This document shows, in pieces, positions 1,424 through 23,894 of a DNA stretch of 64,000 nucleotides; the stretch's first letter is position 1, and the number at the start of each line of letters is the position of its first letter. The translations under genes were made by a program, and so were the position numbers. The notes under the pieces were generated by a model. That model saw nothing but the letters and a program-made list of their open reading frames with translations. It was not told where the DNA came from and made no database searches. This stretch comes from a virus (lineage: Duplodnaviria; Caudoviricetes), in the IMG/VR virus record IMGVR_UViG_3300028048_000039, positions 192,001 through 256,000 of that record; one strand, written 5' to 3'.

Positions 1424-1777
1424 TTAGCAAATTCCCGTTTTTAAGTAATCACCATCTGGTGTATCAATTGTTATCTCATCGTATTCAAGGAAATGTTTTA
1501 CCTCGCCAATGTAATCAATGACATCCTCCTCCGTCAAGTCCTCTTGCTCATATTGAGTCGTGTTCTCCCAAAGTAGATTGATATACTCACCTTCTTCGTC
1601 TTTCTTAACCTCGTCAATGAATTCCTCTATCGGAATAATCATTCCAGTTCCTTCTACTATTCTCCAAGACTCATCCTCATATTCCCAGATGTAAGCGAGA
1701 AGATGAACAAACCTATTACCATCGTCATCCGTAAAGATGTTGTAGAGTTCGCACTCCATTGCTTTTTCTAATTTCAT
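1424..1777 (-). CDS. Acidic hypothetical protein
   Basis: ORF with SD-like AAGGGAAGGT and sigma54-type promoter at 1833-1848. Confidence 0.85.
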   Translation of the reverse strand: MKLEKAMECELYNIFTDDDGNRFVHLLAYIWEYEDESWRIVEGTGMIIPIEEFIDEVKKDEEGEYINLLWENTTQYEQEDLTEEDVIDYIGEVKHFLEYDEITIDTPDGDYLKTGIC

Positions 1778-1871
1778 ATTGTACCTTCCCTTTTTAAGTT
1801 GTTAAACAATAACTGTGGACATTAATAGGTATAACAAATTCCGTGCCAAACTATCTATTTGATGATATTTT

Positions 1872-2066
1872 TTAGTTAGATAAAATACCATCTTTAATAT
1901 CAAGAAGAAGCGTAATAATTAAGCCAATAGGTGCAGTAAAGAAAAATCCCCACCAAAAAAACTTATGTTTTGTTTTCACTATTGTTTCAACAATGGAAAC
2001 AATAAAAATGTGTAGCACACCAAATAAGATAATCAGTTCAAATATACTCTGCTCCGTCATAGTCAT
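1872..2066 (-). CDS. Small membrane protein
   Basis: Two hydrophobic segments, WWGFFF motif. Confidence 0.65.
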   Translation of the reverse strand: MTMTEQSIFELIILFGVLHIFIVSIVETIVKTKHKFFWWGFFFTAPIGLIITLLLDIKDGILSN

Positions 2067-2072
2067 ATTTTT

Positions 2073-2915
2073 TTATTCATCCTCTTCACTCCACACTGCG
2101 GGTTGCTGCTCTGATTGAATCAGATATTTCTCTGCATACCGTATAATCTTTGCCCAATCATTTTCCTTGAAAGCCTTATCAATGTCTCCGCACTCTCCTT
2201 CAGATAAAGACATCTTTCCTTCTGGACGGTTTTCATCCAGATAGTTCATAAACCTGATTGCAAGGTCGTGCTTGGCGGCTTGATAGATTTTTTTACGAGG
2301 CTGTGGACGGAGTGATTTGAGGAAAGAATCAAGTTCTTCTTTTTCGTCAACACTTACTTCTCTTCCAGATGCAATATGTACTATTTCAAGAATGTGATTT
2401 AACTTATTTTTATCCTCTTCATTCCACTCATTCTTTGGCTGGGGTTTGAGGGATTTAAGCCAAGAAGATAATTTTTCTTTGTACTCATTTGACGGATGCA
2501 AATGGCCCGTACAACTTGGAATATCCATTGGAGGAAGTGTATCAGCGTATTTAATCATCTCAAGTATATCCATTAGTTTGTCTTCATCCTCTTCACTCCA
2601 CTCCGACTTCTGTTCTTTCTGCTTTTCAAGTTGCTCTTTGAGATAATAATTCTCTTCAATCAATTCACCAATTCTTGCATTAGATATTTGCAAGGCTTTC
2701 ATCAAATTACCTTGCTTTTCAAGCCAAACAAAAGCCTTATCCTTTTCTTCAGGTGACATATAACCACCAACCTGAATAATGCGAATAATTTTCTTTCTTA
2801 TCCTCTCATCCTCGCTTTCTTTAAGTTCTGGAATAAACAACTCACAAGCTTTCCGTAAGTCACTACCTGACGTACAATTTCTTTTAATGATTTCTATTGC
2901 CTCTTCTTTTGTCAT
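2073..2915 (-). CDS. Hypothetical protein with W(S/N)EED repeats
   Basis: ESEDERIRK and three W(S/N)EED(E/K) motifs; ATG at 2915 preferred over the track start at 2927. Confidence 0.8.
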   Translation of the reverse strand: MTKEEAIEIIKRNCTSGSDLRKACELFIPELKESEDERIRKKIIRIIQVGGYMSPEEKDKAFVWLEKQGNLMKALQISNARIGELIEENYYLKEQLEKQKEQKSEWSEEDEDKLMDILEMIKYADTLPPMDIPSCTGHLHPSNEYKEKLSSWLKSLKPQPKNEWNEEDKNKLNHILEIVHIASGREVSVDEKEELDSFLKSLRPQPRKKIYQAAKHDLAIRFMNYLDENRPEGKMSLSEGECGDIDKAFKENDWAKIIRYAEKYLIQSEQQPAVWSEEDE

Positions 2916-10381: not shown

Positions 10382-10433
10382 CACTAATACTATTGCAAAT
10401 AGTGTGCCAGACTACTCATTTCCGGAAATTTTT

Positions 10434-13535: not shown

Positions 13536-13626
13536 ATGATACCTCCTTTTTTAATGGGTTAAACAATTAAGTGTGGACAATAATATACTTGCAAAATCCG
13601 TGCCAAACTGATAAAAAAAGGGAAGA

Positions 13627-14751
13627 TTAAGTTTTCATCTTCCCCCCTTTCTGCCCATTACACTTTCTACAAATCATCTGCAAATTCTCAAGAATTGTCT
13701 TTCCACCTCGCCACCAAGGAATTATGTGGTCTCCCTCCATCTCTTCAAAGGTATGATGCTCTCCGCATATTGGACAAACCCCCTCTTGTTTCTCATAAGC
13801 CGTTCTCTTGTCCACATTGCTAAATGTCCTCTTGGAAAGCTTCCTTGCAATGTCCTCGCTCTCATTGGAAAGCACGTACTCATAAATGCCCTTCTTGTCA
13901 GTAACTTCCTCGTTCTCCATCAATGAGTGAATTTTCTCCTCCAAGGTCTCGCAATCATACTCATTGCCCTTATAAGTGTCATAGAGCTTTCCCCAGTTTA
14001 AGCCGCACATCTCCTTTCTATAATACTTTCCGGTATTAAACGTCCCCTCAATCCAAGAAATCACATTGTTGAAGTAATCCCAAAGCTCACTGGCATCCTC
14101 ATCGTGCTGATGCTCTGCCATATAGTCAGCAATCTTTCCATCACTTATCCAGGAAAGCGCAGTCTCAAGGTACTCTTGCCTAATCGGACTTCCCTTTACA
14201 AACCTATTACCAATCTTATAGGCCACACAATTGGTCTTGCTGAACTTCTTCTTTGCATCGGTAAGCCACTTTCCGGTATAGTTGATATTAAGCAGCTCCT
14301 GGTCAGTAAGCTTTTCCCCGGCAATGTTAATCGTCCTAAACCAATCCAACCTCTCCTTGTCATTGCCATTGCAGACGTAGATATCCACTGGATAAGATAG
14401 AATTCTCTCCTGCTCAACGTCAGTCAAGTTATGGAAGTACATAGGAACACCCTCAACCTCAACCGAGAAGTCCCCGGAAACGTACTGGCAAAAGGAAATA
14501 GTCCTCTGCTGTCCATCAAGGACTTCATAAGTGCCATCCTCATTTTCCGCCCAGTACATAACGTTAAGCGGAAACCCCTTAAGGATAGTTTCAATCACTG
14601 CTGCCCTTTGCTTGTCCTTATAAACGAACTCCCTTTGATATGCCGGACGGATGTTAAGCTTTCCACTGAAGCCGGAAACTCCACCCTCGGCATTGTCAAC
14701 GTAGTCCTTGCTAATCTCCTTGATTGTGTAATTCTTGTGTTCTATTCTCAT
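13627..14751 (-). CDS. DUF262 (GmrSD-like) + HNH endonuclease
   Basis: RPAYQREFVY, LDGQQR and FRTIN DUF262 motifs; C-terminal CPIC...DHIIPW..GG...NLQMICRKCN..K HNH domain. Confidence 0.9.
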   Translation of the reverse strand: MRIEHKNYTIKEISKDYVDNAEGGVSGFSGKLNIRPAYQREFVYKDKQRAAVIETILKGFPLNVMYWAENEDGTYEVLDGQQRTISFCQYVSGDFSVEVEGVPMYFHNLTDVEQERILSYPVDIYVCNGNDKERLDWFRTINIAGEKLTDQELLNINYTGKWLTDAKKKFSKTNCVAYKIGNRFVKGSPIRQEYLETALSWISDGKIADYMAEHQHDEDASELWDYFNNVISWIEGTFNTGKYYRKEMCGLNWGKLYDTYKGNEYDCETLEEKIHSLMENEEVTDKKGIYEYVLSNESEDIARKLSKRTFSNVDKRTAYEKQEGVCPICGEHHTFEEMEGDHIIPWWRGGKTILENLQMICRKCNGQKGGKMKT

Positions 14752-14854
14752 AATGTACCTCCTACTCTTATTGGGTTAATACTTTATCGTCTATTGACGT
14801 GTATGCAAATTATGTGCCAAACTTTACTTTCTGCAGAAAATTTTAGTCTAATAG

Positions 14855-15097
14855 TACACAATTTGAAATAGTAGGGTTAGATAGGTATGTAGAAGATAAC
14901 CCTCATTATGGACATAGATTTACTATTAGCGGAAAAGAAACTTACGCAAGAATTTTAATTAAGCGGAAAGTTTCTTAATAAGTATTCTTGCATAGACACC
15001 TTTATTATTTACATAGAACTTTACTCTGCCATCGTTTCCATTTATAAGTCCTTCTCCTCTCGCACCACTCATAATTCCCACTATTTCAAATTGTGTA
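14855..15097. mobile_element. Invertible segment (243 bp) bounded by 18-bp perfect inverted repeats
   Basis: TACACAATTTGAAATAGT at 14855-14872 and its exact reverse complement at 15080-15097; both read TQFEIV in frame. Confidence 0.85.
14856..14978 (+). other. Silent alternative C-terminus of the methyltransferase
   Basis: Translates as TQFEIVGLDRYVEDNPHYGHRFTISGKETYARILIKRKVS*, homologous to the expressed TQFEIVG...YARILIKKLSA*; no start codon of its own. Confidence 0.88.
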
Positions 15098-15960
15098 GAA
15101 ATGCTGTTAATCTCTATATGAATAGTACCATCACTCCACAAATATTTCAACCCCGTAATCGGAATACCGATAACTCCGTTATAGTCCATAGGAAATTTCT
15201 CCATCCTACCACACTCAATAGCATCGTAATTATCGTACTTTGGAAAATCTTTCTCGTTGTACTTCTTGTAAGTGTCAAGTGTTTCTCTTTTATTATCATT
15301 TGAAACATTTGTGTACCAACAAATAGAATTTACTTGCTTGTATATTCCATCTGCCTTTGTAATATACCTCTCATTTTCAATAGGATAATTTGCGGGCATT
15401 TTGAAGTATGGCATTTTGCCTGTGAATAAAGTTCTGCCAAGCCAAAGTTGTCCGTTCTTTATAAGTGGAAATATCTCTTTGTAGGTAATTGCGTTGTTAT
15501 TCCCCAAGATAATAAATTTCTTGTTGTACTTCATAAGTTGAGCAACATACTCCCTGAACAAGCTAAATGGTGGGTTGGTAACTACCACGTCAGCTTCCTT
15601 AAGATAAGCAATGCACTCCTCACTCCTGAAGTCCCCATTACCATTAAGATAGGTAACCTTTACCTCTTCATCATCCACTCTCCTATTGCCGTTCTTGTCC
15701 CCCTCATATACCAATACCACACCACGTCCATCTGCCTTATATCCAGTGCTGATGAGCTTCTTCAACCCAAGGTGCTCAAAGTTAAGGGAGAAGTATTTAA
15801 AGAAGTTAGACTCCCTGGCATCATCACAATTACAATAAACCACCTTCCCCCTGAAGAAGTCCTTGTAATGCACCATCTCTTTCTCAATATCTGACAATTG
15901 AGTGTAGAATTCGTCTTGCTTTGCTGTCTTTGCCTTGTGTAAATTAGAGTTCTTTGCCAT
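14959..15960 (-). CDS. Adenine-specific DNA methyltransferase, EcoRI-methylase family
   Basis: DEFYT, VYCNCDD, GDFRSEEC, catalytic TNPPFSLF, PKYDNYDAI motifs. Confidence 0.9.
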   Translation of the reverse strand: MAKNSNLHKAKTAKQDEFYTQLSDIEKEMVHYKDFFRGKVVYCNCDDARESNFFKYFSLNFEHLGLKKLISTGYKADGRGVVLVYEGDKNGNRRVDDEEVKVTYLNGNGDFRSEECIAYLKEADVVVTNPPFSLFREYVAQLMKYNKKFIILGNNNAITYKEIFPLIKNGQLWLGRTLFTGKMPYFKMPANYPIENERYITKADGIYKQVNSICWYTNVSNDNKRETLDTYKKYNEKDFPKYDNYDAIECGRMEKFPMDYNGVIGIPITGLKYLWSDGTIHIEINSISTQFEIVGIMSGARGEGLINGNDGRVKFYVNNKGVYARILIKKLSA

Positions 15961-19186: not shown

Positions 19187-19350
19187 AATTTTCTATTTTT
19201 TTACATAAATAGCGCTTTTTCCTGAATAATTTTTTATAAGAAAACATTAAATAACGACCGAGGTTGGCTTCCGCCAACCTTTTTTTATCATCGGGCCTAA
19301 CTTATTTGGTTAAATAAACTATTTATAAAGAAATTACCTTTTAGTTAGAA

Positions 19351-23799: not shown

Positions 23800-23894
23800 A
23801 AAAATGATATTTCTTTATAAATAGTTTAAAACCCACTAAAACATTGACAAAATCATGGCTTTAGTTTATTTTATTTATAAATTACACATGAATT

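Follow-up and report, generated by a model that had tools for sequence, protein, structure and literature searches.

Can the end of a phage DNA methyltransferase gene be exchanged by turning around a short piece of DNA? The question is raised by a locus in a 64-kb stretch of a jumbo-phage genome (IMG/VR record IMGVR_UViG_3300028048_000039, positions 192,001 to 256,000; this whole stretch of 64,000 nucleotides is called the window, and positions refer to it). There, 243 bp (14855-15097) are bounded by perfect inverted repeats, one arm of which lies inside the gene for an adenine methyltransferase of the EcoRI_methylase family. The segment probably acts as a switch that alters this methyltransferase by inversion, within a two-gene module of the restriction-modification type carried by the phage. 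That inversion swaps the C-terminus of the enzyme was also the core of the first-pass annotation of this DNA; it gained support from the recurrence of the layout among relatives, the concerted evolution of the arms, purifying selection on the silent cassettes and naturally occurring inversions between related phages.

Two alternative gene ends within 243 bp

The arms (TACACAATTTGAAATAGT and its reverse complement) are identical in 18 of 18 nt, and the match extends to 21 nt if one mismatch is allowed. Within the window they form the sole inverted repeat of at least 14 nt at a spacing of 2 kb or less, and in the whole genome of 344,580 bp they rank second in length among inverted repeats within 5 kb. 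The expressed open reading frame (ORF) on the minus strand (Table 1) codes for 333 aa and ends in ...STQFEIVGIMSGARGEGLINGNDGRVKFYVNNKGVYARILIKKLSA. The plus strand of the same segment translates as TQFEIVGLDRYVEDNPHYGHRFTISGKETYARILIKRKVS, a silent cassette whose frame has an in-frame stop four codons ahead of the T and contains neither ATG nor GTG nor TTG. Both cassette frames overlap tail to tail by 20 nt. When 14855-15097 was replaced in silico by its reverse complement, an in-frame protein of 328 aa resulted. Thus, the perfect arms, the expressed end and its start-less alternative with their 20-nt overlap, and the change from 333 to 328 aa, all of which had been noted in the first-pass annotation, were reproduced. 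Its statement that the promoter of the neighboring nuclease gene is left untouched also holds, as the promoter-like site lies outside the segment.

Another element of that annotation was given up. A 7-6-7 dyad in the in-gene arm had been likened to a tyrosine-recombinase core; it runs beyond the repeat, is not conserved in relatives (it is present in some loci only) and is accounted for by codon choice. The arm ACAATTTGAAATAGT is a near-palindrome (12 of 14 positions) because the codons CAA-TTT-GAA-AT dictate it, and it is missing from several related loci.

A crossover between the 18-bp arms would reverse the 243 bp and join the conserved body of the enzyme (residues 1-294) to LDRYVEDNPHYGHRFTISGKET-YARILIKRKVS, which would replace IMSGARGEGLINGNDGRVKFYVNNKGV-YARILIKKLSA. 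The putative spare cassette, promoter-less, start-less and antisense, is headed by the outer arm. Because each cassette carries its own conserved last strand and stop codon, a single crossover site would suffice and no non-functional intermediate would arise. The type of cassette that is silent in the window is expressed elsewhere, in P0031/L267 (where the core differs by one residue) and also in L002, L003, L168 and bacterial loci.

The layout recurs in related loci

Approximately 255 loci with homologous methyltransferase genes were taken from IMG/VR, GTDB genomes, JGI metagenomes and ENA/Logan contigs. A six-frame scan for the protein pattern revealed an expressed cassette together with a tail-to-tail, start-less antisense cassette of another type in L002, L003, L014, L033, L166, L247, L248, L266 and L267, in two paralogues on one contig (L010 and L012), in L260, L261 and L263, in L251 (where the antisense cassette is cut by the contig end), and in L255, the closest relative of the window's enzyme (77% identity). 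Independently of any protein motif, 244 homologous genes were scanned for inverted repeats from the end of the gene to 450 nt downstream. The outcome was bimodal: 231 genes had no repeat of 12 nt or more, three had short palindromes, and ten had arms of 16-58 nt. In all ten, the arms lay on QFxI codons and an antisense cassette was present. L010, L247 and L267 share the layout beyond the cases recovered by this repeat scan.

Altogether, the search for antisense cassettes in homologues, which the first-pass annotation had proposed, revealed the window's layout in at least 12 other loci, with arms of 15-58 nt (15-21 nt in 12 of the 13 loci) situated on xQF(E/R/Q)I codons. The contigs concerned belong to phages, are phage-like or are unassigned metagenome sequences; 80 loci from bacterial or archaeal genomes yielded no example. 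The idea of a two-state switch stood for the two cassettes of the window but not in general, as the relatives L260 and L261 hold three to five cassettes at repeated sites of 17-21 nt. Some lineages have no spare cassette or a remnant only (L250, L253, L254 and L167). A scan of metagenomes, which contributed L247 and L248, yielded relatives of at most 54% identity among the matches listed; homologues in GenBank phages reached at most 49%.

Cassettes are also arranged in other ways among the relatives. Arrays of PF13651 pieces occur in related phages (L260:1294-4144, L261:420-4404, L004:4976-6225 and L252:1557-1724), where the methylase can be split into ORFs of 267 and 102 aa, and where mini-ORFs (55-102 aa, each beginning with its own ATG) stand in tandem and encode MK(I/V)RIKNP..GVPITFL..QFEII followed by a cassette. 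Such mini-ORFs may deliver their recognition modules as subunits in their own right; besides inversion, multiple specificities could then be reached by a second route. Immediately upstream of an antisense C-terminal methylase mini-ORF in L252 lies an ORF resembling HNH/NUMOD-type homing endonucleases (1714-2172, minus strand). Extra C-terminal cassettes in direct orientation and in other frames were observed immediately past the methylase stop in L089:5975-6330 (from the cultured Fibrobacter intestinalis ATCC 43854), P0045 and L247:1299-1499, and some proteins contain two fused cassettes (..FRKG..DLSY/VFTRERERES.., then a second cassette); both arrangements may result from recombination between direct sites.

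The arms evolve in concert and the silent cassettes are maintained

If the arms of a locus recombine with each other, their sequences should agree better within than between loci. Over the 15 nt starting at the Gln codon (11 loci), 14.6 positions were identical within loci and 10.7 between loci, and not a single pair from different loci was identical. The 3′ motif (Y.RILI), which is equally conserved, showed no such difference (12.1 of 18 nt within and 12.3 of 18 between loci). Protein constraint thus leaves the identity of the arms unexplained, and concerted evolution is confined to the 5′ motif.

Selection on the silent cassettes was assessed from the proportions of synonymous (pS) and nonsynonymous (pN) differences. 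For the KFRKG type, pairs of silent cassettes gave a pS of 0.87 and a pN of 0.074, corresponding to a pN/pS of 0.085; that of expressed pairs was 0.118. For the LDRY type, to which the window's spare belongs, pN/pS ranged from 0.12 to 0.19 (silent-expressed 0.17, expressed-expressed 0.19). None of the silent cassettes found contained an internal stop or a frameshift. An unused fragment would be wrecked at such saturated synonymous divergence; judged by these substitution patterns, the silent cassettes are under purifying selection like the expressed ones.

Both orientations were encountered in nature among the relatives, with the breakpoints at the arms. One study supplied the phage contigs L260 and L266 from two of its samples; they align colinearly across the methylase body (95.5%) and again in the flank downstream, but the 243 bp bounded by two TCAATTTGAAATAATTGG sites run in opposite directions (6 mismatches when aligned inverted versus 157 when aligned directly). 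Between L251 and L166, colinearity (95.4%) extends to the final base of the arm; beyond it follows a shared cassette, 97.3% identical but inverted, which is antisense and silent in L251, and sense and expressed in L166. L261 and L262, compared with L260, have lost or gained DNA between copies of the site that lie in direct orientation. As far as can be told from aligned contigs, the rearrangements among these genomes are shufflon-like.

Four short contigs (L250, L251, L264 and L265) break off within the cassette region, 58-87 nt past the methylase stop; coexisting variants in a sample would make an assembly graph branch at this place, which is suggestive only. Exact-match scans of IMG/VR for the body-plus-arm junctions of the window, L003 and L002 retrieved the source contigs only and no flipped copy. 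We infer that the window's own locus still flips within its population.

The exchanged loop as a candidate recognition element

The methyltransferase matches PF13651 over profile positions 1-344 of 345 (E 3.8e-111; 372 bits versus a cut-off of 26.4) and the PADLOC model MTase_II over its full length (E 1.8e-104); it is the only PF13651 gene in the phage genome. Its catalytic TNPPFSL is invariant across the alignment of homologues. Between QFEI(V/I)G and Y(A/F/S/R)RILIK, in contrast, the homologues are mosaic: unrelated inserts of 18-64 residues are found on otherwise similar bodies, even on bodies that are 95-98.6% identical at the protein level. More than 55 cassette types were counted in 170 loci, and they are common to phage, bacterial and archaeal genes.

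In the AlphaFold model of the enzyme (predicted local distance difference test, pLDDT, 83), the variable residues 295-322 form mostly a coil excursion between the strands 287-297 and 326-330, and confidence is lower within the loop (pLDDT 65-79 over residues 301-320). By Foldseek and VIA-align, the N-terminal half has a class-I fold like that of the gamma-type adenine methylases M.TaqI, MmeI, DrdV, M.BseCI and EcoKI-M; the variable part lies C-terminally. In gamma-class adenine methylases, target recognition is carried by the part that follows the NPPF motif. This order of domains, the reuse of discrete cassette types across phages, bacteria and archaea, and the co-variation of cassette type with the neighboring body residues 173-252 suggest that the variable loop belongs to the target-recognition region, in which case the two forms would methylate different motifs. 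The analogy to M.BanLI points in the same direction: this enzyme, which was aligned with M.EcoRI by its authors, methylates one strand of RTCAGG, and BanLI confers ∼10-fold restriction alongside this methylation (PMC3990576). The link to the window's enzyme runs through that alignment and not through a direct comparison. By inversion, the phage can thus probably change the DNA sequence that its methylase marks.

The nuclease partner and a possible coupling of restriction

Directly downstream of the methyltransferase gene, and in the same orientation, lies a gene for a nuclease that matches PF03235 and PF01844 and, over its full length, the PADLOC model REase_II (E 3.3e-126); in the PADLOC catalogue the two proteins figure as methylase and restriction enzyme of Type II. 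Nuclease homologues occur in 217 of the ∼255 loci, mostly directly downstream of the methyltransferase gene, with a median spacer of 8 nt (103 loci measured). Bacteria, archaea and phages alike carry the two genes as a tight pair. Conservation is uniform along the nuclease, which contains no hypervariable block and, once the similarity of the methylase bodies was controlled for, does not co-vary with the cassette type.

A complex of both proteins was predicted with an interaction prediction score from aligned errors (ipSAE) of 0.62, compared with 0.00 for the best of three controls; in a calibration, 58 of 80 solved complexes and 2 of 110 mismatched pairs attained this mark. Contacts agreed by at least 72% between runs, and the pLDDT of the partner was at least 85. 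The predicted interface consists of residues 22-30, 55-63, 92-94 and 224-226 of the methylase and residues 20-22, 46 and 93-110 of the nuclease; the cassette is not involved. As a search of the PDB gave no solved relative of the methylase or the PF13651 family, mere recall of a known complex is unlikely. The model supports binding of the nuclease to the conserved body of the methylase. Because the nuclease has no co-varying part and is modeled to dock on the constant body, switching would be led by the methylase: the nuclease would follow its specificity, and each flip would redirect marking together with cutting, in the manner of Type I and Type III systems. The likely benefit would be bet-hedging of both specificities against variable hosts or competing phages.

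How the inversion might be catalyzed

The first-pass annotation had found no recombinase next to the segment, and this extends to the whole 344-kb genome: Pfam profiles for Resolvase, Phage_integrase, OrfB_IS605, DEDD_Tnp_IS110, Y1_Tnp and Transposase_31 had no match in this 93%-complete genome. The 95%-complete genome of L033 likewise gave no match to Resolvase or Phage_integrase, and a resolvase lies ∼50 kb from the locus in one of five relatives. Across 12 cassette loci, no neighboring gene other than that of the nuclease is shared, and the phage genome yielded no second inverted-repeat system built on this core. TnpB (OrfB_IS605) genes were observed 0.5-2 kb from the methylase gene in two relatives (L166:4127-5284 and L254:2541-3695).

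The sequence of the arms varies by locus (CAATTTGAAAT, CAGTTTAGAAT, CAATTTAGGAT and others), and only the identity of one arm to the other is conserved. This, the deletions between direct copies of the site, and the fact that the phage encodes a RecA-like protein (besides RecD-like and Dda-like helicases) favor homology-dependent recombination by general functions over a site-specific recombinase supplied in trans, if only by a slight lean. Several observations pull the other way. In all but one of the 13 loci, the arms, at 15-21 nt, are short for recombination of the RecA type, and together with their sharp, conserved outer boundary they would suit a site-specific mechanism. Moreover, GTCTAA(T/C) adjoins the outer arm, and never the inner one, in 7 of the 13 loci (the window, L002, L010, L012, L014, L033 and L166), where 0.004 occurrences per 25-nt flank would be expected. 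Finally, the paralogous but diverged loci L010 and L012 of one phage agree completely over a 16-nt site that each of the four arms contains, and over a further 23 nt of outer flank. The motif and the four identical sites are hints of a site-specific system.

Other roles were considered for the GTCTAA(T/C) motif. It can be ruled out as a promoter element of the nuclease gene, as the usual 8-nt spacer lacks it and as it is also present where the nuclease lies upstream (L014) or is absent from the locus sequence (L010), and as an in-frame stop guard, as it is in frame in some loci only. The motif resembles the 5′ leader TGTYTAAC of the phage.

Alternative explanations

Rather than flipping, the spare cassette could serve as an evolutionary reservoir that is swapped rarely, so that each population would be effectively fixed in one orientation and there would be no phase variation. 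The failure to find an invertase in the phage genome and in L033, the shortness of the arms and the loss or decay of the spare in L250, L253, L254 and L167 would all fit. Several further findings weigh against a switch in current use. Both inversion pairs are genomes of ∼95% identity that also differ by loss or replacement of another cassette; what they show, as aligned, is rearrangement on an evolutionary scale between related genomes and not a rate of switching. L255 couples the cassette type expressed in the window to a different silent type, which implies turnover of cassettes as well as flipping. The protein search returned nothing more than 77% identical to the window's enzyme, and no near-identical genome. 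A reservoir, however, has difficulty accounting for arms that are perfect in 13 of 13 loci although the synonymous sites of the cassettes are saturated (pS ∼0.8), which requires either frequent interaction of the arms or ongoing selection for their identity. Nor would it explain why silent cassettes are constrained like expressed ones, as this implies that each is expressed a good share of the time, and the contigs that break off just past the gene are as expected from coexisting variants. We regard a mere reservoir as improbable. A different objection grants that the locus flips but denies that the loop sets specificity; the loop might vary to escape an inhibitor or sensor of the methylase, with the methylome unchanged. 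No structure or biochemistry ties the loop to DNA, its model confidence is lower, and the nuclease does not co-vary with it. Further, Foldseek and VIA-align matched only the N-terminal Rossmann-type fold and left the β-rich C-terminal half without a match, and the PDB search offered no solved homologue to compare with. The co-variation of residues 173-252 cuts both ways, as a cassette swap by itself might give an incompletely new or incompletely active specificity. On the other side stand the number and length range of the discrete cassette types and their recurrence on distant bodies, which is the pattern of target-recognition modules, the co-variation of the loop with the adjacent variable C-terminal domain, and the place of target recognition in gamma-class enzymes. 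A loop without influence on specificity thus appears unlikely.

Rather than part of a switch, the antisense cassette might be a stump left by another methyltransferase gene of convergent orientation, or a C-terminal mini-gene translated on its own. ATG-initiated mini-ORFs of 55-102 aa, convergent or in tandem, do occur in L004, L252, L260, L261 and L266, as do split methylases and an antisense fragment of 148-155 aa. In the window, however, the antisense frame opens only four codons before TQFEIV, has neither a start codon nor a ribosome-binding site, and abuts the nuclease promoter; homology to the gene starts exactly at the arm, and a stump would be expected to show neither perfect arms nor purifying selection. 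This explanation is therefore very improbable. A chance repeat or an assembly artifact can practically be dismissed: no comparable repeat occurs in the window, and hardly any in the genome, the distribution over the 244 genes is bimodal, and the layout was recovered from independent IMG/VR, ENA, JGI and Logan assemblies with different pairs of cassettes. An inversion switch in the methyltransferase gene thus remains the preferred explanation of the segment.

Comparison with known systems

Inversions that swap the C-terminal specificity part of bacterial restriction-modification methylases are established, and inversions of phage tail-fiber genes are known. New are the viral host, the enzyme family, the scale (243 bp, 18-bp arms and overlapping cassettes of 30-50 residues) and the fact that an invertase seems to be lacking. 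No account of a switch of this kind, be it in a phage methylase or in a PF13651 enzyme, was retrieved by searching the open literature, in line with what the first-pass annotation had remarked.

In bacteria, gene-altering inversions have been described for the methyltransferases PglX of BREX, DrmMI-like of DISARM and Cj0031-like of Type IIG (Milman et al, NAR 2023; PMC9881135), and PF13651 is absent from the inversion targets listed there. Like the window, these systems have repeats that link an expressed gene to an inverted, promoter-less partial copy, so that gene and pseudogene are asymmetric; the C-terminal part associated with specificity is replaced, and the target is the DNA methyltransferase of a defense-type module. 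The window likewise has one arm of the repeat in the coding sequence and a silent segment that is in frame after inversion. However, the bacterial examples are large fused enzymes encoded on chromosomes, usually with longer repeats and a tyrosine or serine invertase nearby, whereas the window's system is phage-borne, concerns a PF13651 enzyme of 333 aa of which only 30-50 residues would be swapped, and has tail-to-tail cassettes between short arms with no invertase found. In the hsdS invertons of Type I systems (SpnD39III/ivr of S. pneumoniae with CreX/PsrA, Mycoplasma pulmonis hsd and Bacteroides; PMC7672463, PMC4948785), inversion also shuffles recognition modules, which gives one methylase and its nuclease alternative specificities for bet-hedging in the population while the nuclease subunit stays unchanged. 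The window, in contrast, has no HsdS: the variable module is inside a PF13651 methyltransferase, whose only partner is the DUF262-HNH nuclease, the host is a phage, and there is one short pair of repeats and no cognate recombinase gene.

Phages Mu (G/Gin) and P1 (C/Cin) and the element e14 (Pin) also swap C-termini by inversion, with the constant N-terminal part encoded outside the segment. Those switches determine the host range of tail fibers, span 3-4 kb and rely on sites of 26-34 bp, an enhancer and a serine invertase encoded alongside, whereas the window's switch concerns a DNA methylase and 243 bp, and the Resolvase domain typical of Gin, Hin and Cin was not found in the phage genome. 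With the R64 shufflon (Rci, sfx), the relatives L260 and L261 share alternative C-terminal segments, three to five in number, behind one constant gene. Unlike in R64, no Rci-type recombinase (Phage_integrase domain) was found in the window's genome, the sites differ in sequence between loci, and deletions between direct sites occur, which Rci does not catalyze. The multispecific cytosine methyltransferases of Bacillus phages (SPR, phi3T and rho11s) recognize several targets via modular domains of ∼40 residues; these modules are in tandem in one polypeptide and all used together, whereas those of the window are alternative DNA cassettes, one of which is expressed at a time. BanLI, an EcoRI-family methylase with a 43.5-kDa restriction subunit (PMC3990576), methylates the asymmetric RTCAGG on one strand, which fits a methylase-led system, and the window resembles such Type II pairs in that its genes are adjacent, co-oriented and matched by catalogued models. 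BanLI, however, is a fixed chromosomal system that has no spare cassette.

Features of the locus and genome context

The genome is a jumbo-phage record with a CheckV completeness of 93% and 37% G+C; besides the RecA-like protein mentioned above, its genes include those for helicases, a Lon-like protease and a RecD-like nuclease. The switch is situated in an island of short genes with −24/−12-type promoters and strong Shine-Dalgarno sites. TGGCAC-N5-TTGC sites precede minus-strand genes at 10395-10409, at 13591-13605 and ahead of the nuclease gene (Table 1); three such sites compare with 0.05 expected in the window.

Table 1. Positions of the switch and adjoining features in the window.
Feature	Position	Strand	Basis or remark
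Adenine DNA methyltransferase, 333 aa, EcoRI_methylase family	14959-15960	−	Pfam, PADLOC; TNPPFS at residues 128-133
Inner repeat arm, in-gene, codons (S)TQFEIV	15080-15097		Perfect 18-nt repeat; same codons in 12 other loci
Outer repeat arm, head of the silent cassette	14855-14872		Perfect 18-nt inverted repeat
Interior of 207 bp; holds only the two variable cassettes and their own stop codons	14873-15079
Silent, start-less alternative C-terminus TQFEIVG-LDRYVEDNPHYGHRFTISGKET-YARILIKRKVS*	14856-14978	+	Translation
Currently expressed variable cassette G-IMSGARGEGLINGNDGRVKFYVNNKGV-YARILIKKLSA*	14959-15079	−	Commonest type among homologues
Tail-to-tail overlap of the cassette frames, 20 nt	14959-14978		Similar overlaps in L002 and L260
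AGTCTAAT motif adjoining the outer arm	14845-14852	+	GTCTAA(T/C) at the same place in 7 of 13 loci
−24/−12 (sigma54-type) promoter-like site TGGCAC-N5-TTGC ahead of the nuclease gene	14805-14819	−	Outside the segment
DUF262 (GmrSD_N) and HNH nuclease, 374 aa, conserved partner of the methyltransferase	13627-14751	−	Pfam, PADLOC

The longest inverted repeat of the genome within 5 kb is a different one: a perfect repeat of 20 nt (TAAACTATTTATAAAGAAAT) at 19315-19334 and 23809-23828, which brackets two convergent genes (647 and 698 aa).

Implications

The switch would bring the bet-hedging logic known from bacterial Type I hsdS, BREX PglX and DISARM onto phage genomes, applied to a small methylase of the Type II style and in the most compact form yet. 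If the two forms write different motifs, phage populations would make their epigenetic mark more diverse and probably also what their nuclease attacks, with a bearing on host range, escape from host restriction and competition between phages. In that case, the cassette of 30-50 residues would also be a portable specificity module for the engineering of adenine methylases. Given the apparent absence of an invertase, the loci could serve as a test case for short-repeat recombination in phage genomes.

A more far-reaching picture can be drawn, which as a whole is doubtful. A clade of large gut and rumen phages might carry a methylase-led restriction-modification weapon, the specificity of which would be reprogrammed by mini-shufflons of 30-50-residue cassettes without a dedicated invertase; the phage recombination machinery would act on 15-21 bp of microhomology, perhaps guided by GTCTAAY, and the generic DUF262-HNH nuclease would dock on the constant body, with cutting and marking both redirected at every flip. 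Should this be true, the viral side of the arms race would have its first restriction-modification system of switchable specificity.

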